A DNA stretch of 64,000 nt from an uncultured Flavobacteriaceae bacterium (GCA_964595535.1 CAZQRD010000004.1:5071-69070); one strand, 5' to 3'; shown: positions 4,334 through 29,552, numbered from the stretch's first letter. A program made the numbers and translations. Notes: generated by a model from the letters alone, not told the origin.

Positions 4334-5368
4334 ATGAGAAAACTTAAATACTTATTTGTTTATATTCTTCCCTTGGGAGTGTATTTTGCTTTTAACAGAA
4401 ATGGCTGGAGAACGTTTTCTCCGATTATCTTTTCGTTTGTTCTCATTCCTCTTTTCGAACTTTTTTTAACCCCCAACAGGAAAAATTTTGATCAGGAAAC
4501 ACTGCTCAAAGAAAAGAATAGCAGGATCTATGATTGGATATTGTATGTATCGGTTCCTGTGCAATTGTTAATGCTAACTTCATTTCTATTTGTTATTGAA
4601 CTCACTCCAATGGGTTCGGTGAGCTTTGTTGGTAAGGTTTTTGCCATGGGGCTGTTATGTGGTGTTCTGGGAATCAACATAGGTCATGAACTTGGACACC
4701 GTGCATCGAGAGGGGAACAATTCTTAGGGGAGGTTTTGCTATTGACGTCACTCAATACACATTTTCTTCCTTATCACAATGAAGGACATCACAGGGAAGT
4801 TGCAACACCTAATGATGCTGCTACAGCTAAAAGGGGGCAATCTCTTTTTTCTTTTTGGATCACTTCCCATTTTGGGAGTTATGCGAAAGCATGGAAGATT
4901 GAAAACAAAAGAGTGAAACGAAATGGTAAATCCATTTTTTCTTTATCGAATAGAATGATCTCTTATTCCATTGCAAATATCATGTTGCTTTTAGCAATTT
5001 ATTACTTTTTTGACGCCAAGGTGCTTTTGGCATTTGTCCTTGCTGCTGTGATAGGCATATTGTTGCTGGAAACAGTAAATTATATTGAGCATTACGGTTT
5101 ATTAAGAACTAAAAATGAAAAGGGAAGATATGAGCGAGTCAAACATCAGCATTCCTGGAATTCAGATCATCAGATTGGGAGATTGATGCTTTTTAATCTT
5201 TCAAGGCATTCAGATCATCATTATAAAGCCAGTAAAAAATACCAGGTGTTGGAATCACTTCCCAACAGTCCTCAAATGCCAACAGGGTATCCGGGAATGA
5301 TGGTACTGGCTTTTATTCCTCCTTTGTGGTTCAGCCTTATGAACCCAAAACTGGAAGGCATTTATTGA
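4334..5368 (+). CDS. alkB: Alkane 1-monooxygenase (membrane non-heme di-iron hydroxylase)
   Basis: His boxes HELGH, HNEGHH, NYIEHYG, RHSDHH and the LPNSPQMPTGYP tail. Confidence 0.9.
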   Translation: MRKLKYLFVYILPLGVYFAFNRNGWRTFSPIIFSFVLIPLFELFLTPNRKNFDQETLLKEKNSRIYDWILYVSVPVQLLMLTSFLFVIELTPMGSVSFVGKVFAMGLLCGVLGINIGHELGHRASRGEQFLGEVLLLTSLNTHFLPYHNEGHHREVATPNDAATAKRGQSLFSFWITSHFGSYAKAWKIENKRVKRNGKSIFSLSNRMISYSIANIMLLLAIYYFFDAKVLLAFVLAAVIGILLLETVNYIEHYGLLRTKNEKGRYERVKHQHSWNSDHQIGRLMLFNLSRHSDHHYKASKKYQVLESLPNSPQMPTGYPGMMVLAFIPPLWFSLMNPKLEGIY

Positions 5369-8629: not shown

Positions 8630-10756
8630 TTATCTTTTTGAATGTAATGACAATTGAATACGTTTTCGATTTTTATCGACTTCCAAGACCTTTACAATCA
8701 CCTGCTGATTAAGGTTCACGATTTCATTTACATCCTTGACAAAGGTATCTGACAGATTAGAGACATGGATCAAGCCGTTTTCTTTGATCCCGATATCCAC
8801 AAAGCAACCGAAATTTGTAATATTATTAATAATTCCCGGGAGCAACTGACCTTCCCGAAGATCATCAATGGTTTTCAAATTATGGTCAAAGCTGAATACT
8901 CTTGCTTTTTCCCTCGGATCGAGCCCGGGTTTTTCCAGTTCTGTTACAATATCTTTTAAAGTTGGTAGCCCTATCTCATCTGTTGTATATTTTGTAAGAT
9001 CGAGCTGCTGGAGAATATTTTTATTAGCTATAAGTTCGGCTACACTTTTGTTCGCATCCCTCGCAATTTGACTAACAAGTGCATAACGTTCAGGATGAAC
9101 AGCGGAGTCGTCAAGGGGGTTCTTTGCGTTCTTGATTCTAAGAAAGCCGGCACTTTGTTCAAATGCCTTTTCGCCCAATCTCGCTACTTTTTTTATGTCG
9201 GAGCGTGATATAAAAGATTCCTTTTCTTTTCTGTAAGCAACAATATTTTCGGCCAGCTTTTCACCGATGCCAGAAACATAGCTTAGCAAGGAAACACTTG
9301 CAGTATTAATATTGACGCCAATGGTATTGACACAACTTTCCACAACCATATCTAAACTGTTCTTCAATTTACTTTGATCCACATCATGCTGGTATTGACC
9401 AACCCCGATAGATTTTGGATCGATTTTAACCAATTCGGCCAAGGGGTCAGCAAGCCGCCGTCCTATAGAAACCGCACCTCTTACAGTAACATCATAATTC
9501 GGAAATTCATCACGGGCAATTTTCGAAGCTGAATAAATAGAAGCTCCGGCCTCATTGACCACAAATACTTCCACCTCTTTATTAAAACGAATTCTTTTGA
9601 CCAGACTTTCAGTTTCACGTGAAGCTGTACCGTTTCCAATGGCTATGGCATCAATTTTATAGGCATCAACCAATGAACTTAGCTTTTTGATGGCTCCTTT
9701 ACTGTCGTTTGTAGGTGCATGAGGATAGATATTTTCATTGTACTCAAGTGCTCCCTGAGCACTCAAACAAACTAATTTACAGCCCGATCGAAAACCAGGA
9801 TCAATGGCCAAAATCCTTTTTTCACCTAATGGAGCCCCCAATAACAGCTGCCTCAAATTCTTGGAAAAAACCTTGATCGCGTTGTCATCTGCCCTGTCTT
9901 TTGCTGCTTGGAGAATTTCATTCGAAAGAGAAGGGAAAAGTAATCTTTTGTAGGCATCTTCGACGGCCAGAGAAATTTGATTTGCACATTCGTCTGTACT
10001 CGTTATGATTCTTCTTTTGATTTCATCAATGATCCGGTTTTTATCAAGTTCAATATGGACTCTTAAAAATCCCTCTCTTTCTGCTCTTAAAATGGCGAGT
10101 AAACGATGGGAAGGGCAAGAGTTTAGTTCTTCTTCCCAATTAAAATAATCTTTAAATTTTATGGCTTTATCACTGTCTGCCTTTGATTGCACTACTTTGG
10201 TTCGGATCTTCGCAAATTTGTTCAAATGCCAACGAATTCGATTTCTAACACTGGTTCTTTCGTTGATCCATTCGGCTATGATATGTCGTGCCCCTTCAAG
10301 AGCATCTGTGCTGTCGATCTCAGATGAGGTATACTTTCTTACAATTTCGTCTAATTGTAAAGGTTTTTGACTCATGATGATCTTGGCCAATGGTTCTAAT
10401 CCATTTATTCGGGCCTTTTCAGCCTTTGTCTTTCTCTTTCTTTTAAAAGGAAGATAGAGGTCTTCCAGAGTATTTAAATCACCTGTGGCTTCAATGTTAG
10501 CCTTAAGTTCATTTGTTAAAACTTCTTGATCTTTAAGTGTTTTTAAAATAGAGATCTTACGTTTTTCTAATTCTTCAAAGAGATGCTTAAACCTAACTAT
10601 GTCGCCTATTTGAACTTCATCTAAATTTCCTGTATGCTCTTTTCGATAACGGGAAATAAACGGAATCGTACAATCTTGATTTAATAATTGAATGGTATTC
10701 TCAACTCCTTTTGAGAGAAGGTTCGTTTTTGAAGTTATAAAACTTAATAATTGCAT
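8630..10756 (-). CDS. tex: Tex family RNA-binding transcriptional accessory protein
   Basis: TIPFISRYRKEHTGNLDEVQI, YqgF-like AIDPGFRSGCK, HhH region, C-terminal S1 domain. Confidence 0.95.
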   Translation of the reverse strand: MQLLSFITSKTNLLSKGVENTIQLLNQDCTIPFISRYRKEHTGNLDEVQIGDIVRFKHLFEELEKRKISILKTLKDQEVLTNELKANIEATGDLNTLEDLYLPFKRKRKTKAEKARINGLEPLAKIIMSQKPLQLDEIVRKYTSSEIDSTDALEGARHIIAEWINERTSVRNRIRWHLNKFAKIRTKVVQSKADSDKAIKFKDYFNWEEELNSCPSHRLLAILRAEREGFLRVHIELDKNRIIDEIKRRIITSTDECANQISLAVEDAYKRLLFPSLSNEILQAAKDRADDNAIKVFSKNLRQLLLGAPLGEKRILAIDPGFRSGCKLVCLSAQGALEYNENIYPHAPTNDSKGAIKKLSSLVDAYKIDAIAIGNGTASRETESLVKRIRFNKEVEVFVVNEAGASIYSASKIARDEFPNYDVTVRGAVSIGRRLADPLAELVKIDPKSIGVGQYQHDVDQSKLKNSLDMVVESCVNTIGVNINTASVSLLSYVSGIGEKLAENIVAYRKEKESFISRSDIKKVARLGEKAFEQSAGFLRIKNAKNPLDDSAVHPERYALVSQIARDANKSVAELIANKNILQQLDLTKYTTDEIGLPTLKDIVTELEKPGLDPREKARVFSFDHNLKTIDDLREGQLLPGIINNITNFGCFVDIGIKENGLIHVSNLSDTFVKDVNEIVNLNQQVIVKVLEVDKNRKRIQLSLHSKR

Positions 10757-10816
10757 GTGTCAAAATTGGAAAACACAAAGGTATAGTTTCAAGGAGATAA
10801 AATAAGGCGGAAATTT

Positions 10817-10846
10817 AAAAACCCAATGAAAAATTAAACATTGGGT
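10817..10846 (-). terminator. Probable intrinsic terminator of the ECF trio
   Basis: ACCCAATG/CATTGGGT 8-bp stem followed on the minus strand by a short T run, 17 nt after the stop at 10863. Confidence 0.5.
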
Positions 10847-10862
10847 CTTTAGCTTGTATTTC

Positions 10863-11936
10863 TTATAAATCGAGTCGCAAACCAATAGCAATATTATTTT
10901 CCTTGCGATTTGGATCGTTAAAAATTTTGTTCAAATCATATTTCACATAGAAAGAAAAATCATCAGCACCGATATAACTACTTAAACCGTAAATAAGATT
11001 GCTTGTGTTATAGCTTTGTGTAATCTTATCTTTTTGCTTCGACCCATTTTGAGAATATTTTAATTTTTGGCGTGTTCGCATGTTAAATCCGAAATAACTT
11101 CCAATACCAAATTTGAATTTTTTTCTTGTGGAAAATCGAAAATAACTTCCTTTATCGATTTTTTTAGAAGGACCAAATTCAAAATGAATGGGTACTACCA
11201 AATTGTCCATTCGAAGTTTTGATTTAGTTAAACTTCCAGGAAACTCTTCCAAATAAGTTAATTCTCCATCTTGAACGAAATACATGTTATCCGTTGGATT
11301 TAAGCCATTGAACTGGAAGGCAAAGCCATACCTAAAACGAATGGCATTAGATGCCTCAAGGACCCTTGTGGTCCATGTCCAACCCATTTCAAAAAATTTA
11401 CTTTTCCCCATTTTATAGGGTGAGTTGTCGATAGATTGCCCTTCAATAATAGCATTGTTAAAACCAAAGGCAACTAATAGATTCGAATGTGTTCTTTTGT
11501 CATATTTTTTTTGTTTACCATAATAGATATCAACCAGAGGGTCTTCATCGTCAAAAATTTTAATTTCAACACGGGAGATATCTTCGTGAACGACGATAAT
11601 TGTATCGGTTTTCTTCTTGGTGGCACCGGCTCTAGCTAATAAGGCTGCTTCATTTTCTAGGATTGCTATTCTGTTTTCAATATTTAAGGCATGTATTTCA
11701 GAAGCATCTTCTTTTAATTTAGTGGCTTCTTCAGATGTAATATCGCCATGATTGAATCGTTTATTTATCGCTATTACTTCCTCTTTAAGTACTTCTTTTT
11801 CTTCAGAAATTATTTCCTTTTTCTTTTGTTCTAAAGCTTCTTCTTTTTCATATGTCTTTTCTTTTTCTTGCGCCAAAATTTGTGGACACACAAAAACTTG
11901 GCTAATTAAGAATGCTATAAGCAGTATTTTTTTCAT
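10863..11936 (-). CDS. Secreted protein with N-terminal coiled coil and probable C-terminal outer-membrane beta-barrel
   Basis: Signal peptide ending AQ, about 100 aa of E/K-rich heptads, then alternating-pattern strands ending IAIGLRLDL. Confidence 0.65.
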   Translation of the reverse strand: MKKILLIAFLISQVFVCPQILAQEKEKTYEKEEALEQKKKEIISEEKEVLKEEVIAINKRFNHGDITSEEATKLKEDASEIHALNIENRIAILENEAALLARAGATKKKTDTIIVVHEDISRVEIKIFDDEDPLVDIYYGKQKKYDKRTHSNLLVAFGFNNAIIEGQSIDNSPYKMGKSKFFEMGWTWTTRVLEASNAIRFRYGFAFQFNGLNPTDNMYFVQDGELTYLEEFPGSLTKSKLRMDNLVVPIHFEFGPSKKIDKGSYFRFSTRKKFKFGIGSYFGFNMRTRQKLKYSQNGSKQKDKITQSYNTSNLIYGLSSYIGADDFSFYVKYDLNKIFNDPNRKENNIAIGLRLDL

Positions 11937-11954
11937 AATGGGGTTATCATTTAA

Positions 11955-12641
11955 TCAATTTTCTCGTGATGTGACTACTTCTCTAGGATTTTTAAGAGTC
12001 TTTGCTATCTTCTCGATCAATTTTTGTTTTAGATCTTTATATAGATCCTCTTCAACAGAATTCAATAGAGCATTGGCACTTACTATTTTTTTTGATGAAA
12101 TTTGACCGTTTACAGTTAATTTTATTTTTGATTTATTTAATAATTGTTCAACTTCATCATCGATAAATTGTTCTTCAGAATTAAGTATTTCAGTTATTAG
12201 AATGGCTTCTGTTACTGTATCGTTAACTTTATTTATTGAAACCTTACTCTTATCAGCAGGCACAGTAAAAGCAATCTCTTCTGCACTGGCTTCACTCTTA
12301 TTTGATTCAAGTATGGGCCGCTTTTTGATTGTTGAAATTTCAGGAGAAACAGCAATTTCAGTGTCAATGACATCATTAATTTCAGGAAGATTGTTCAAAT
12401 TCTCTTTTAAAGATGGAGAAACAATGATTGGAGCATTAATTATTTCCTTATCGGGTTTCAAAAAATAAAATCCAACTGAGATAAAAATCAATATAACTGA
12501 AGCAACTTTGAAAAACCTTGGATTTATTCTTTTCTCTTTTTTTTCATGCTCAGTTAAATTTCTATTTAACTTTTCCCAGGAATCTGAAGATGGTTTGATG
12601 GTCCTGTTTTGAAGTTGTTCCTTGTAATTATGTTGTTTCAT
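11955..12641 (-). CDS. Single-TM putative anti-sigma factor
   Basis: 4-nt overlap with the ECF sigma gene; short N-terminal PSSDSWEKL segment; one TM helix (FFKVASVILIFISVGFYFL); low-complexity linker; helical C-terminus. Confidence 0.65.
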   Translation of the reverse strand: MKQHNYKEQLQNRTIKPSSDSWEKLNRNLTEHEKKEKRINPRFFKVASVILIFISVGFYFLKPDKEIINAPIIVSPSLKENLNNLPEINDVIDTEIAVSPEISTIKKRPILESNKSEASAEEIAFTVPADKSKVSINKVNDTVTEAILITEILNSEEQFIDDEVEQLLNKSKIKLTVNGQISSKKIVSANALLNSVEEDLYKDLKQKLIEKIAKTLKNPREVVTSREN

Positions 12642-24262: not shown

Positions 24263-24700
24263 ATGGGTATTTCTGATCTATATCTAGGCATAGGGCATAG
24301 AAGAAACATCAGTCACTTTGCGAACATTGTTCGCATTGCAATATCTGATGATCAAATTTCACCCGAAGAAATAGCGTTTCTCACGAAAGTATCTAAAAAG
24401 TACAATATCACTGATGAAAATTTTAAGAAGATCTTGAAATTCCCTGAAAGTGTCCCCACCATTGCACATATCAACTGTATAGAACGGATTGAAAGATTGT
24501 ATGATTTATTAATTATGATCAAGGCAGATCATCACATTCAAATTGAGGAGGTCTCCGTGTTGAGGAAAATAGCTACCGGCCTGGCCTTCCCACTGCATGA
24601 GGTAGATCGAATTGTAGATGAATCAATAACAATTGATACTGATTCAACAGATCAGGAGACTTTCACAAAAGCCATTCTCAAAGTAATGCACTTAAAATAA
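24263..24700 (+). CDS. TerB-like (tellurite resistance family) helical protein
   Basis: Two TerB-type repeats: IAISDDQISPEE and MIKADHHIQIEE. Confidence 0.8.
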   Translation: MGISDLYLGIGHRRNISHFANIVRIAISDDQISPEEIAFLTKVSKKYNITDENFKKILKFPESVPTIAHINCIERIERLYDLLIMIKADHHIQIEEVSVLRKIATGLAFPLHEVDRIVDESITIDTDSTDQETFTKAILKVMHLK

Positions 24701-24885
24701 TTATTTTTGAGATGCAATAACCCAATTTTGAGCCTCAATGAATCATTTGAATAGGCCTATTATGATTAGTATACCCTCATATCATGGGCTCATTACTGAT
24801 CAATTACTCTTCTTTTTTATATGAGAATTTCAGCAATGGAGTTTTTCTTCATTTTAAGGCTCCCCACATCAAAAAATCAAGAATA

Positions 24886-24917
24886 TTTAGACATATCTAA
24901 AATAATATTTATATTTG
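24886..24917 (+). promoter_or_regulatory. Putative MntR/DtxR operator (TTTAGA-N4-TCTAAA) abutting the -7 box TATATTTG
   Basis: Perfect 6-bp inverted arms at 24886-24891 and 24896-24901; -7 box at 24910-24917; ATG at 24932. Confidence 0.7.
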
Positions 24918-24931
24918 CCAAAAAAATTAAC

Positions 24932-25591
24932 ATGTATTCACAGGCAGAGGAGAATTATTTGAAGACTATTTATGCTCTTGAAAAGGATTTTTCAAATGAA
25001 GTCAGCACCAATCTTATCGCAAGTAAAATCAAGACCAAAGCATCTTCGGTAACTGATATGGTAAAAAAACTGGCCAATAAAGACCTTGTGGTGTATAAGA
25101 AGTATCAAGGCGTCTACCTAACTGAATTGGGGAGGTTGAGCGCTTTGAAGGTAATCAGGAAGCACAGGCTGTGGGAGTGTTTTTTGGTTCAAAAACTTCA
25201 ATTTAATTGGGATGAGGTGCATGACATCGCTGAACAATTGGAACATGTGAAATCAGAACTCCTCATAAATAAGCTTGACGCCTTTTTAAGGTATCCTAAA
25301 CTCGATCCTCATGGAGATCCTATTCCCGATGCTCACGGAAGGATCATTCTGAGTAAATCAATGAGCATATCAGATATGAAGATTGGTTCTGCCGGAACTT
25401 TTGTTGGTGTAAAAGATTCATCAGCAACTTTTCTGAAATATCTTAACAAGAAAAACCTGGCTTTGGGTGATAAGATCAGGGTGATCGACATAGAACCTTT
25501 TGATAATTCGTATCATATAGAAACAAAAACACATAGGTTGGTAATTACTAGTAATATAGCCGACAACCTTTGTTTAAAAAATGTCAAATGA
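24932..25591 (+). CDS. mntR: MntR/DtxR-family metal-dependent repressor with C-terminal FeoA/SH3-like domain
   Basis: EENYLK, recognition helix [29 protein letters not shown]. Start refined to 24932 (track start 24821 lies upstream of the promoter). Confidence 0.88.
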   Translation: MYSQAEENYLKTIYALEKDFSNEVSTNLIASKIKTKASSVTDMVKKLANKDLVVYKKYQGVYLTELGRLSALKVIRKHRLWECFLVQKLQFNWDEVHDIAEQLEHVKSELLINKLDAFLRYPKLDPHGDPIPDAHGRIILSKSMSISDMKIGSAGTFVGVKDSSATFLKYLNKKNLALGDKIRVIDIEPFDNSYHIETKTHRLVITSNIADNLCLKNVK

Positions 25592-26610
25592 TGACCTATA
25601 ACCCGCTAACGGCTCTCTTAATTTTTATAGGATTTTCAGTATTGATCTGGGCTTTTTTTCGACCGGTCAAAGGATGGTACTGGTTGCTAAAAATCAATTG
25701 GCAGTCAAACGAAAAGACAGTAATGGAAGACATTCTCAAGCAGTTATACCGCCTGGAGAGTTATGGAGCCGAAATTGACATCACTGTACTTACCAATTCA
25801 CTTAAGATAAAAGACAGCCATGTGATACAAGCCATTCATAAAATGTCGGTCAATGAGTTGGTTAAGGTTGAAGGTGATTTGCTTCGGTTGACAAAAGAAG
25901 GAAGACAGTATGCCCTAAAAATAATTAGGGTGCATAGGTTATGGGAAAAGTACCTGGCCGAAAAGACTGGCTTTGATAAAACTGAATGGCATGACAGGGC
26001 TGAAGAAATGGAACATGTTTTGAGTCATGAAGAAACAGATATATTGGCTGATCAATTAGGAAATCCGATGTATGATCCGCATGGAGATCCAATTCCGAAC
26101 ACCCTTGGAATACTGAAGGAAATTGAAGGGGAACCCTTGTCATCCATGTCGGTAAATAGCCTAGGTAGAATCGTTCATATTGAAGATGAACCAGACGTTA
26201 TTTACAGACAGATTCTTGCCGAAAATATTCATATTGGCTCGATCATCAGATTAGAGGAAAGAAATAACGAACGTATCGTTTTTTATGCGGAAGGAGAAGA
26301 ATTCGTTCTGGCTCCTATTGTTGCCGCTAATATAACTGTTGCCGAACTGAAAAAGGATGTTGTTAAAGATGAGGGCACAGTTAGATTGTCCAGTTTACTG
26401 GAAGGTGAATCGGCAAAGATCGTGGGGATGTCTAAGGAGTGCCGTGGAGAAAATAGAAGGAGATTACTGGATCTTGGATTTGTTAAAGGAACGGAAATCA
26501 AAATAGATCTTAACAGTCCCATGAAAAATCCCGTAGCCTATGCGGTTAAAGGAACCAGTATTGCACTGAGAAATGATCAGGCCTCAAAAATTCTTATTAA
26601 TAAATTATAG
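25588..26610 (+). CDS. Membrane-anchored DtxR-like protein fused to two FeoA domains
   Basis: N-terminal TM ([16 protein letters not shown]) + RPVKG; [25 protein letters not shown]; FeoA-1 ([10 protein letters not shown]...IHIGSII) and FeoA-2 ([12 protein letters not shown]...SPMKNP...IALR). ATGA overlap with the mntR stop. Confidence 0.85.
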
Positions 26611-26612
26611 TT

Positions 26613-27377
26613 ATGTCTAAAAAAACAGATCTCGCATGTGACTCATGTGCCCATTATAATTCAGAAGGACTTAAGAAACTTGGAGTTGACACAAGTAATT
26701 TTGATTATGTTGTCGCTATTGCCGGAAATCCTAATACTGGGAAAAGCACGGTATTTAACGCTTTGACAGGACTAAGACAGCACACCGGGAATTGGCCGGG
26801 AAAAACTGTCGCCAGAGCAGAAGGAGCCTTTTTCTATGCCGACAAAAAATTTAAATTAGTGGATCTCCCGGGTACTTATTCGCTCTTGTCAACTTCGCAG
26901 GATGAAGAAGTGGCGCGAAATTTTATTCTATTTGGGAAACCTGATGTGACCATAATAGTTGCTGACGCCTGTCGTCTAGAGCGCAACCTGAATCTAGTAT
27001 TGCAGATTCTGGAAATTACAGACAAAGCTGTTTTATGTCTTAATTTGATGGATGAGGCAGAAAGAAATGAGATTGAAATTGATACAAGAATGTTGTCCCG
27101 TGAATTGGGAATTCCGGTTGTTGCCACCAGTGCAAGATATCAACGGGGTATTCCTGATCTTATTCAAACGGTTGATGAAATTGCTTCTGGTAAGCTTGTG
27201 TGTAAGCCCAGAAGAATTAAGAATGTACCGAATAAAATACTAAAGGCGGTTACTAAATTGAGTGCAGAAATCGAATCGGAGTTTCCAAATATTCCCAACA
27301 GCCGTTGGATAGCCTTACGTTTGCTCGAAGGTGATAACCGGATCATTGAGGCTTTAAAAACAGGAGAATTAGTTTAA
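26613..27377 (+). CDS. feoB: FeoB GTPase (N-terminal cytoplasmic) half
   Basis: G1 GNPNTGKS, G2 NWPGKTV, G3 DLPG, G4 NLMD; N-terminal CDSCAH. Confidence 0.93.
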
Positions 27378-27378
27378 T

Positions 27379-28800
27379 ATGGAAAAAGGAGCTGCTAATA
27401 GAATTTTAAATTTAACGAATGAGCTGAGGTGGAAGATTGGTGAAGATTTTCACGACCTTCTCGCTGAAGGAATCTATGCAGATGCATCTGATATTGCTGA
27501 AAGTTCTGTCAGTAAGACTTCAGAAAAAAACAAGTTTAGGATCGATCGGAAGATTGATGAGATCGTCACAAGCAGAATCTGGGGATTTCCCATCATGCTA
27601 TTGCTGCTGGGCCTTGTTCTTTGGCTGACCATTGAAGGAGCAAATTATCCTTCTGCCATGCTTGCGAATATTTTACTGGACGATTTCCATCCCTTCCTTA
27701 AAAATTTATCTGCCGCCATAGGGATACCCTGGTGGCTTGATGGATTTTTGCTTGATGGGGTATACTTGGCGGTAGCCTGGGTGATCGCAGTGATGCTTCC
27801 TCCAATGGCTATTTTCTTTCCCTTGTTTACTTTGTTGGAAGATTTTGGATATTTGCCCAGAGTTGCGTTCAATATGGACAACCTCTTTAGAAAATCAGGA
27901 GCCCATGGTAAACAAGCCCTTACCATGAGTATGGGATTCGGTTGTAATGCTGCAGGTGTTGTTGCCACGCGTATAATTGATAGTCCAAGAGAGCGATTAA
28001 TCGCTATCATCACTAATAACTTCTCACTGTGTAATGGCCGCTGGCCAACCCAGATCTTGATCGCGACAATTTTTGTTGGAGCACTGGTTCCAAAATCTTT
28101 TTCAAGTCTTGCCTCTTTGTTGGCGGTGGTTGGAATTGCTGTACTTGGAATCGCCTTTATGTTCCTGGTTTCCTGGGGGCTATCGAGAACAGTGCTCAAG
28201 GGAGAAGTTTCTACTTTTAATTTAGAATTGCCTCCATACCGACCTCCAAGGTTTTGGAAGACCATTTATACCTCCTTGATTGACAGAACAATGATTGTTC
28301 TTTGGAGGGCGATTGTTTTTGCCGCTCCTGCCGGAGCATTGATCTGGCTCATCTCCAATATTCATATTGGTGATTTAAGTTTGGCGGGATGGACGGTTCA
28401 AAGTTTGGATGGATTTGGATTTTTGCTAGGACTAAATGGAGTCATACTATTGGCTTATATAGTTGCTATTCCGGCCAATGAGATTGTCATTCCAACTATT
28501 TTGATGCTAACAGTTTTGGTTACTGGTATGACAGGAGGAGAAGGAGCAGGAGTAATGTTTGAATTGGATTCGATTTCTGACACAGGGGAGATTCTAAGAG
28601 CTGGTGGATGGACCTTATTAACAGCTGTTAATCTAATGCTGTTCAGCTTATTACACAATCCATGTAGTACCACGATCTATACAATATACAAGGAAACCAA
28701 AAGCGCAAAATGGACAATTGTCGCCTCCGTTTTACCAGTGGTCATGGGTTTTATAATCACTTTTTTAGTAGCTCAAATCTGGAGGATACTCGCTGAATAA
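27379..28800 (+). CDS. feoB: FeoB membrane (Gate/core) half
   Basis: [32 protein letters not shown]; starts 1 nt after the GTPase stop in a different frame. Confidence 0.9.
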
Positions 28801-28805
28801 ATAAA

Positions 28806-29455
28806 CAAACGGAGACTGATTTACAAATTGAAAGCGGCATGCTGCTCAAATATGCAGAAGAAGATGAAATTTCTTTACGTGAAATTGCTGTTCCGAGCAC
28901 TTTATTCCGATATGGAATTACAAAAGGAATAGAAATAAGAGTGGTGAATCAATATGTGAATATAAAGGATGAAAAAACTTTAGAGGAAATTTCGGGAATT
29001 ACAGATCTTGAATTAGGGCAAAAATTCAGTTGTTTAAAAAGGAAAACAGAAATATAGAAATTGCATTATTGTCTCATGTAATACTACCTATTGGCACTAA
29101 GGAAGTATCTTTTGAGAAGGTGGGAACCATAAATAAATTATGCTTTTCTCATCAATTAAGTGATAAGGTAGGTTTGGGATATAATGTTGGGTTTAATTAT
29201 TTTGGATATGATGATGGTTTTCTAACATATTCTGTGGCACTAGGTCTTGAAATTACGAGGAAGGCAGGAATATATATTGAACCCTATGGTAATATTGGCC
29301 TTTTTGATGAACCTCTTGCTAATATTGACTCTGGAATTACGTATTTGTTGAAAGATAATTTTCAGCTTGATTTTTCATTTGGAACGGGCCTTAATTATAC
29401 CATGAATTATATTTCGGCGGGATTTAGTTGGAACATTGCTCCTAAAGCCAATTGA
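28806..29455 (+). pseudogene. COG4313 / Phenol_MetA_deg-type outer-membrane beta-barrel 'transporter', truncated and frameshifted
   Basis: QTE..LQIESG...PSTLFRYG...SGITDLELG then +1 frame AKIQLFKKENRNIEIALLSH...NFQLDFSFGTG...SAGFSW. One G missing at 29016-29018; no start codon or signal peptide (in-frame TGA at 28794). Confidence 0.75.
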
Positions 29456-29552
29456 TATAAACAGGTCATAACTTTAGCAAAAGCAGCTAGAATTTTTAAA
29501 GTAAACCGGTCTTGTTTAAGGCCATTTTCATTACTTTTATTCAAAAATATAC

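Follow-up and report, generated by a model that had tools for sequence, protein, structure and literature searches.

A conserved Flavobacteriaceae operon with a predicted MntR repressor, a membrane-anchored DtxR-FeoA protein and a FeoB made in two pieces

The window analysed here, a 64-kb low-GC (~37%) stretch of bacterial DNA from an uncultured Flavobacteriaceae bacterium, carries a non-canonical operon of the ferrous iron transport (Feo) type. Four intact plus-strand genes lie between positions 24886 and 28800 (Table 1) and are predicted to encode a soluble repressor of the DtxR/MntR family (g1), a membrane-anchored DtxR-type protein with a C-terminal FeoA domain (g2), and the two halves of the transporter FeoB (g3 and g4). 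They are joined by an ATGA overlap (g1/g2), a 2-nt gap (g2/g3) and a 1-nt gap (g3/g4), and are predicted to form one operon behind a single palindrome-bearing promoter. The initial annotation had counted five contiguous plus-strand genes here; four are intact and their junctions are exactly as it gave them, but the fifth, an outer-membrane barrel, is decayed. The closest genome is that of Lutimonas vermicola (Flavobacteriaceae), whose g2 is 90% identical, and near-identical copies of the window are present in four marine-sediment metagenome runs (X1-X4).

Within 24700-29500 there is no open reading frame (ORF) for a free feoA or for a feoC, because the genes are packed too tightly to leave space, and the FeoA domains recognised by Pfam in the operon lie inside g1 and g2 only. 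The ORF scan and the domain search together uphold the earlier statement that FeoA occurs here solely fused to DtxR-like proteins. No RNA element with an Rfam match, Mn riboswitches included, and no tRNA was detected anywhere in the window.

Table 1 Features of the operon and its promoter region, in window coordinates
Feature	Position	Strand	Basis
Operator palindrome, predicted MntR site, TTTAGAcataTCTAAA	24886-24901	.	Pattern match and conservation
Bacteroidetes-type -7 element, TATATTTG	24910-24917	+	Read from sequence
g1, predicted soluble DtxR/MntR repressor, 219 aa	24932-25591	+	Pfam
g2, predicted membrane-anchored DtxR with a true FeoA, 340 aa	25588-26610	+	Pfam, AF2
FeoA-2 domain of g2	26380-26601	+	PF04023
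g3, FeoB N-terminal half, 254 aa	26613-27377	+	PF02421, PF17910
g4, FeoB C-terminal half, 473 aa	27379-28800	+	PF07670, PF07664
Outer-membrane beta-barrel remnant (Phenol_MetA_deg), pseudogene	28839-29455	+	Alignment to intact orthologues

A tblastn search with g2, using one genome per species, returned matches in 312 species, and the best 80 loci were inspected. All 80 carry g2, g3 and g4 (g4 being cut by a contig end in a few) and 79 carry mntR, the remaining locus, L073, starting at g2. The gene-neighbourhood survey thus found the order mntR-g2-feoB(N)-feoB(C) conserved across 80 Flavobacteriaceae-like loci. Of the 78 loci that allowed the g1-g2 gap to be measured, 74 have one of -11 to +4 nt; g3-g4 gaps are mostly -11 to +22 nt, with seven at 63-80 nt. 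Amino-acid identity to the window ranges from 52 to 96% for g1, 59 to 90% for g2, 74 to 93% for g3 and 77 to 93% for g4, and the cassette is found in isolate genomes of Lutimonas, Gaetbulibacter, Aureibaculum, Mariniflexile and Yeosuana.

A canonical feoA-feoB pair adjoins the cassette in 29 of 67 assessable relatives, so that two Feo-type systems are kept side by side. At locus L050, the minus strand of 10168-12495 encodes a free FeoA of 74 aa and a single-chain FeoB of 699 aa, convergent to the split cassette. Some relatives have three additional genes between mntR and g2 (as in L026, 3082-5960, and L036, 3127-5988). They encode a ~400-aa protein with two CxxCH haem motifs, a ~146-aa Rieske-type protein (CTH...CPCH) and a ~416-aa putative outer-membrane protein, a content that suggests an extracytoplasmic redox step which would feed the importer.

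The promoter of the operon is overlapped by the palindrome TTTAG-N6-CTAAA, whose pattern matches nowhere else in the 64-kb window (0.17 matches expected by chance); no further regulon members are therefore seen in the window. The -7 box lies 8 nt 3' of the operator and 14 nt 5' of the mntR start codon. The Bacteroidetes sigma-A -7 consensus is TAnnTTTG. The best sigma-70-like match, TAGACA-16-TATATT at 24888-24915, overlaps the palindrome too. Among the related loci, and leaving out L073, which has no sequence upstream of g2, TTTAG-N6-CTAAA is found at most 160 nt 5' of mntR in 79 of 80 mntR-bearing sequences (the window and 78 of 79 relatives). Its half-sites are invariant and its spacers vary, with 49 different ones recorded, and a TAnnTTT(G/A) box follows 3' of the operator in 77 loci. 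Where inserted genes part mntR from g2 (L026, L034, L036 and L040), the operator stays with mntR. Invariant half-sites around a free spacer therefore read as a clear phylogenetic footprint of a predicted dimeric regulator site, in agreement with the palindromic operator that had been proposed at this promoter. Mariniflexile soesokkakense has a second paralogue of mntR (L076, 11635-12355), which lies some 2 kb downstream of the cassette and carries its own TTTAG-N6-CTAAA box.

The product of g1 is predicted to be a canonical soluble three-domain MntR/DtxR repressor, with a winged helix-turn-helix (wHTH), a dimerisation/metal domain and an SH3-like domain. Its Pfam scores (PF01325 56 bits, PF02742 103 bits, PF04023 ~36-39.6 bits) all exceed the Pfam cutoffs, and this three-domain match agrees with the earlier call of an MntR gene. 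The best NCBIfam model is MntR of the Thermus type, at 152 bits against a 350-bit cutoff, and g1 reached none of the NCBIfam equivalog cutoffs. Candidate metal ligands read from the sequence are N8, H78, E82, H97, E101, E104 and H105, a mapping that we assume from the structures of DtxR and BsMntR. Across 79 orthologues neither the E-E-N-Y nor the E-x-x-E-H motif varies, and within the helix-turn-helix (HTH) the residues KASSVTDM are nearly fixed. The E-x-x-E-H sites described in the initial annotation are present both in g1 (E101/E104/H105) and in g2 (E139/E142/H143).

The g2 protein reads as a transmembrane (TM) anchor followed by a complete three-domain DtxR and a true FeoA, with a TM segment at aa 6-23, a wHTH-like domain at 44-97, a metal/dimerisation domain at 102-171, an SH3/FeoA-1 domain at 185-255 and FeoA-2 at 265-338. 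Pfam recognises PF02742 (92 bits), two FeoA stretches and, at the borderline, Fe_dep_repress (PF01325, 24.5-26.9 bits against a cutoff of 26). The N-terminal hydrophobic stretch is present in all 80 sequences (79 orthologues and the window), with a maximum 19-residue Kyte-Doolittle mean of 1.82-3.05. Essentially no K/R residues precede it and a mean of 3.8 follow just after it; together with the hydrophobicity, this pattern predicts an N-out, C-in anchor with the bulk of the protein in the cytoplasm. An AlphaFold2 (AF2) model (predicted local distance difference test score, pLDDT, 77) shows a helix at 6-23, a winged helix, a long dimerisation helix and two SH3-like domains, and the structures closest to it in fold are those of manganese repressors (5zr6, SloR, ScaR and DR2539). 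The metal ligands of the DtxR core (D48, H116, E120, H135, E139, E142 and H143) are invariant. The membrane-bound DtxR-FeoA-FeoA protein of the initial annotation is thus recovered, with its N-terminal helix in every g2 sequence and its two FeoA domains in Pfam.

The two FeoA domains of g2 are not alike in their PF04023 scores, which are 69.3 bits for FeoA-2 and 23.1 bits for FeoA-1. FeoA-1 aligns with the SH3 third domain of DtxR. Among PDB sequences, FeoA-2 matches best to 7r7b (76 residues; chain name 'Ferrous iron transport protein B'), which we take to be the FeoA domain of the Bacteroides fragilis FeoAB fusion. Of the 74 positions of FeoA-2, 38 do not vary across the 80 aligned sequences, and it reads as the only transport-type FeoA in the operon.

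The two DtxR-type proteins, which are 30-37% identical across the DtxR core, differ in where their conservation falls when compared over the same 80 genomes. In the HTH motif, 13 of 26 positions are invariant in g1 and 2 of 26 in g2, with mean top-residue frequencies of 0.83 and 0.57; the winged-helix region as a whole has a top-residue frequency of 0.76 and a median net charge of +3 in g1, against 0.65 and -3 (range -7 to +1) in g2. The metal/dimerisation domains stand at 0.80 (g1) and 0.84 (g2), the SH3 domain of g1 at 0.67 and the FeoA domains of g2 at 0.81 and 0.83. The most conserved parts of g2 are therefore its metal domain and both FeoA domains, and the HTH is its least conserved folded domain. 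As the operator half-sites are invariant, their reader should have an invariant recognition helix, which fits g1 and does not fit g2; we infer that g1, not g2, reads the operator.

FeoB is encoded here in two consecutive genes. In g3, a CxxC-bearing N-terminal extension precedes the GTPase domain, after which comes the first half of the helical domain (PF02421, 204 bits; PF17910, FeoB_Cyto, positions 3-46 of 90), and the protein aligns to NFeoB crystal structures (E=3e-48) up to about residue 220 of ~270. The remainder of the helical domain is in g4, followed by the polytopic membrane domain in the order Gate, FeoB_C, Gate (PF07670, 87 bits in two stretches; PF07664, 51 bits); g4 covers positions 224-594 of TIGR00437. 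The halves score 206 and 171 bits against TIGR00437, each under the cutoff of 316. The cut, by this domain assignment, lies inside the cytosolic helical domain. Against PDB sequences g4 gave no match at E<=0.001, and the membrane half therefore appears to have no solved relative.

With the g3 stop codon at 27375-27377 and a new ATG at 27379, FeoB is not a single polypeptide, and the transporter must therefore assemble from g3 and g4. The 80 related loci all share this split point, which argues for a stable gene fission and not for damage, and the split that had been proposed for the window alone is thereby extended to its relatives. The independent assemblies of all four runs agree with the window across g3-g4. 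A frameshift or pseudogene was considered for the split and is ruled out by the same two observations. Furthermore, a fused 747-aa FeoB from Acidobacteria, which shares 59-66% identity with g3 and g4, carries an Ala/Pro-rich linker precisely at the Flavobacteriaceae cut point, so that the split reads as a fission at this linker.

The N-terminal extension of g3 is about 30 aa long and includes the CxxC motif (in ACDSCAH; aa 9-12, window 26637-26648). Both cysteines are invariant in 79 orthologues and recur in the fused Acidobacteria FeoB (ACAACPAHH), and the motif is missing from a split FeoB that is accompanied by an ordinary free FeoA (L082). The motif may be a metal- or redox-sensing site.

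A search of g3 against 1.8 billion cluster representatives found relatives of both short (~250-280 aa) and full-length forms. The four-gene split cassette recurs, at 64% identity, in one further locus (L087). Two others (L082 and L088) share the FeoB fission, with a FeoB_N of ~254-262 aa followed by a ~465-aa membrane protein whose start overlaps the preceding stop; they encode a free FeoA (77-90 aa) and lack a TM-DtxR-FeoA fusion. A gene for a two-domain DtxR/MntR-type regulator lies near the L088 pair. Split FeoB is therefore neither unique to the cassette nor tied to the DtxR fusion.

A second search, with the g2-like protein encoded beside the fused Acidobacteria FeoB, revealed a large family of ~342-aa proteins in Vicinamibacterales and other Acidobacteriota, which share the hydrophobic N-terminus. 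In the Acidobacteria loci, the anchored DtxR-FeoA gene lies directly upstream of a fused FeoB, and a separate soluble three-domain MntR is encoded divergently in L084 and downstream in L086. A FeoB without a FeoA of its own thus stands beside a DtxR-FeoA protein in all 80 loci, in L087 and in L084-L086. The joint retention of both DtxR-type proteins across phyla, although the genes have been reshuffled, argues that the soluble MntR and the anchored DtxR-FeoA do different jobs. Between the divergent mntR and g2-like genes of L084 lies a perfect 18-bp palindrome, ATTTTGATTAATCAAAAT (4958-4975), which looks like an analogous operator of different sequence.

The barrel gene that follows g4 is a remnant. 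It begins 38 nt past g4 and matches Pfam Phenol_MetA_deg (PF13557) over profile positions 86-231 of 242 only, whereas intact relatives have an ORF of 250-256 aa with a signal peptide (253 aa in the Lutimonas vermicola orthologue). DNA alignment to the intact orthologues in L001 and L002 shows that ~160 bp have been deleted in the window, taking away the intergenic region, start codon and signal peptide as well as ~40 codons, and that a 1-bp deletion near 29017-29018 splits the remainder into 28839-29057 and 29030-29455. An extra A after 29017 restores the frame in X1 and X2, whereas X3 and X4 agree with the window; the 5' truncation is present in the contigs of all four runs. With the frameshift varying between runs and the 5' deletion common to all, the barrel gene is decaying in this population, and the frameshift is a strain polymorphism. 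An assembly error as its cause is partly ruled out, as two runs carry it and two restore the frame. Nearby variants are 29073 C>T (X1 and X2) and 29193 T>A (X2 and X3).

A barrel lies downstream of g4 in 24 of the 67 assessable relatives and is missing in the other Lutimonas genomes; in L040, mntR and g2 are separated by a barrel gene of this family. It is best regarded as a facultative accessory and not as a core part of the cassette, and the outer-membrane barrel that the initial annotation counted as a working component is, in the window, a pseudogene.

A few observations concern the surroundings and the samples. Between mfd and the operon lies a gene for a 145-aa TerB-like protein (24263-24700; weak PF05099 match), syntenic in Lutimonas and several relatives and not in other genera, and therefore placed outside the cassette. 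The cumulative GC skew has a minimum near 22-24 kb and rises steadily to ~42 kb (window ~20000-42000); the minimum coincides with the change from minus-strand (mfd) to plus-strand genes, and the turn may reflect gene-strand bias only or a replication-related switch. The Logan contigs of all four runs break at two 31-mers, 27340-27370, just ahead of the g3 stop codon, and 27871-27902. The depth at the shared 31-mers is about double that of the flanks, suggesting that a related second strain or species is present in the metagenome samples.

The closest characterised system is that of Porphyromonas, in which PgMntR (PG1044), a DtxR protein that carries two FeoA domains and shares an operon with the Mn transporter FeoB2 (PG1043), was characterised in 2016 (PMC4805248). 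Each PgMntR monomer binds three Mn(II) or two Fe(II), and the protein binds its own promoter in a complex that Mn strengthens and Fe weakens; deletion of its FeoA-2 abolishes both DNA and Mn binding (PMC4805248). The likeness to the cassette is extensive: wHTH, metal/dimerisation and two FeoA-type domains as in g2, an operon shared with a FeoB paralogue that lacks a free FeoA, a Mn-type ligand set in both, and membership of the phylum Bacteroidota. The S1 Fig of the same study aligns full-length homologues, among them those from Formosa (340 aa), Capnocytophaga, Cytophaga, Melioribacter, Ignavibacterium, Roseiflexus and Anaerolinea (PMC4805248). Most of the homologues in this alignment begin with a hydrophobic stretch, whereas those from Porphyromonas, Prevotella and Tannerella do not, and a transmembrane segment is nowhere mentioned in that paper (PMC4805248). 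With the same kind of architecture in PgMntR/FeoB2, and a Formosa g2 homologue already in the S1 alignment, the claim of an undescribed system does not hold. By analogy, the cassette is a variant of the Porphyromonas MntR-FeoB2 Mn system and not a wholly new machine.

The differences are nonetheless specific. PgMntR has no N-terminal membrane helix, its HTH starting at aa 13, whereas g2 is predicted to be anchored; PgMntR is the sole DtxR-type protein reported in its operon and binds DNA, whereas the cassette adds a soluble MntR; and here the g2 HTH is relaxed and acidic and FeoB is spread over two genes. As far as the literature searches reach, it is undescribed that the family is typically membrane-anchored, that a separate soluble MntR occurs beside it and that, in Flavobacteriaceae, it is paired with a split FeoB, and no description of a split FeoB, or of this cassette in Flavobacteria, was found in the literature searched.

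Compared with canonical feoAB(C), the GTPase, helical and Gate/FeoB_C membrane domains of FeoB are all present in g3 and g4. The cassette differs in that its FeoB is two polypeptides, it has no FeoC, its FeoA is the C-terminal domain of an anchored DtxR sensor and not a free protein, and its operator is of the DtxR/MntR type and not a Fur site. Domains and conserved operator together therefore favour the earlier description of a non-canonical Feo-type uptake operon under DtxR/MntR-type control and not Fur-type control. The B. fragilis FeoAB protein also has FeoA covalently joined to a partner, which there is FeoB, whereas in g2 it is a DtxR module that is separately tethered. In that system, contact between FeoA and NFeoB stabilises GTP-bound FeoB, and the study explicitly discarded DtxR-FeoA fusions from its survey (PMC8980893). 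The split FeoB of L082 and L088 has the same fission point as g3/g4 and differs in its ordinary small FeoA, in the missing TM-DtxR-FeoA protein and in the two-domain MntR of L088. A study of Feo evolution holds that some Feo-like systems are probably Mn transporters, termed "Meo", and mentions neither DtxR fusions nor split FeoB (PMC8749426).

Taken together, we read the cassette as a metal-repressed operon for a FeoB2-like ("Meo"-like) importer in which g2 serves as the FeoA subunit and couples metal sensing to FeoB, a reading to which we assign a probability of about 0.55. A metal-loaded g1 dimer on TTTAG-N6-CTAAA would block the promoter, giving slow transcriptional control and autoregulation. 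The GTPase of g3 and the pore of g4 would assemble by completing the helical domain between them, and g2 would be held at the inner membrane face as the FeoA subunit of the transporter. There its DtxR module could sense cytosolic Mn/Fe and alter the engagement of the g3 GTPase by FeoA-2, providing fast feedback on uptake. In those relatives that keep it, the facultative barrel would supply passage through the outer membrane. More tentatively, and as somewhat short of an even bet, we propose a product-feedback gate, in which metal occupancy of g2 would reposition FeoA on the GTPase and switch the pore within seconds, independently of transcription; no description of such control of a transporter was found for Feo or DtxR-family proteins. 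The initial annotation had likewise proposed that the tethered DtxR-FeoA protein acts on the transporter and not on DNA. This fits the data, since its HTH is acidic and least conserved, its FeoA is most conserved and a separate MntR accompanies it in two phyla, whereas the post-translational gating is something that we still infer.

The imported metal is probably Mn(II); Fe(II) is clearly the less likely candidate, and transport of both metals less likely again. The lean towards Mn follows from the hard-ligand E-x-x-E-H sites of both sensors, which lack the Met/Cys ligands of Fe-type DtxR/IdeR, from the Mn repressors among the closest folds, from PgMntR/FeoB2 being a Mn system (PMC4805248), and from the frequency with which canonical feoA-feoB adjoins the cassette. 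Against our reading of g2 stands PgMntR, its closest characterised homologue, which binds its own promoter DNA in vitro and needs FeoA-2 to bind DNA and Mn, so that by analogy g2 could still be a repressor; the AF2 model also keeps a winged-helix fold in g2. Other observations cast doubt on the lean towards Mn. In the translation of g4, each of two conserved membrane-domain motifs holds one cysteine. FeoB pores are predicted to be cysteine-lined (PMC4847171), and the two g4 cysteines may belong to the pore. In addition, the di-haem and Rieske genes that some relatives insert into the cassette, together with a porin, look iron- or redox-like.

The PgMntR precedent gives most weight to the alternative that g2 is a membrane-tethered repressor in the manner of ToxR or CadC, binding operon DNA beside g1 in answer to a second metal, for instance Fe as opposed to Mn, and using its FeoA domains structurally. 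PgMntR has the same domain set minus the TM segment and binds its promoter with the help of FeoA-2 (PMC4805248), and the winged-helix fold of the g2 model and the borderline Pfam match to its HTH point in the same direction. The HTH itself, however, has few invariant positions and a negative charge although the operator half-sites never change, while that of g1 matches them; soluble MntR always accompanies g2 in the loci examined; FeoA-2 is far closer to transporter FeoA than to regulator SH3 domains; and a structural FeoA would leave the g3/g4 FeoB without any FeoA at all. We therefore consider a tethered repressor unlikely, though it is the alternative we take most seriously. It is distinctly improbable that g2 works by sequestration or as an anti-repressor, pairing with g1 through its DtxR dimerisation domain and keeping it at the membrane, depending on the state of the transporter or the metal, much as PtsG does with Mlc; transcription would then be tied to transporter activity. 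The dimerisation domains of g1 and g2 are homologous, the two are always co-encoded, and g2 would be anchored beside the transporter. Pairing would leave the very strong conservation of FeoA-2 unexplained, and we know of no heterodimerisation among DtxR-family proteins.

That the split FeoB and the unusual DtxR protein are functionless products of decay or errors in a metagenome-assembled genome (MAG) seems hardly credible. The idea draws on the origin of the window in a marine-sediment metagenome, on the neighbouring barrel, which has truly decayed, and on an Acidobacteria MAG (L085) with FeoB in three pieces. The comparative data nevertheless refute it for g2-g4, since isolate genomes are among the loci with the same split, both halves remain 74-93% identical with intact starts and stops, and the four run assemblies agree. 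The operon for a FeoB2-like importer with g2 as its FeoA subunit remains our preferred reading.

The cassette touches two open questions of Feo biology, namely the role of FeoA and the control that the GTPase of FeoB exerts over its pore. It offers three natural pieces, an anchored metal sensor with FeoA, a free GTPase and a pore, with a conventional repressor alongside, and the idea of FeoA as a regulatory gate is thereby testable with purified parts. The PgMntR-type family appears to be mostly membrane-anchored and is widespread in marine Flavobacteriaceae and Acidobacteriota, which changes how its single characterised member should be generalised, and it bears on annotation, where g2-type proteins are currently named transcriptional regulators. 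If the proposed gate is true, sensor-FeoA, G-protein and pore would form a separable three-piece system that reveals the role of FeoA.

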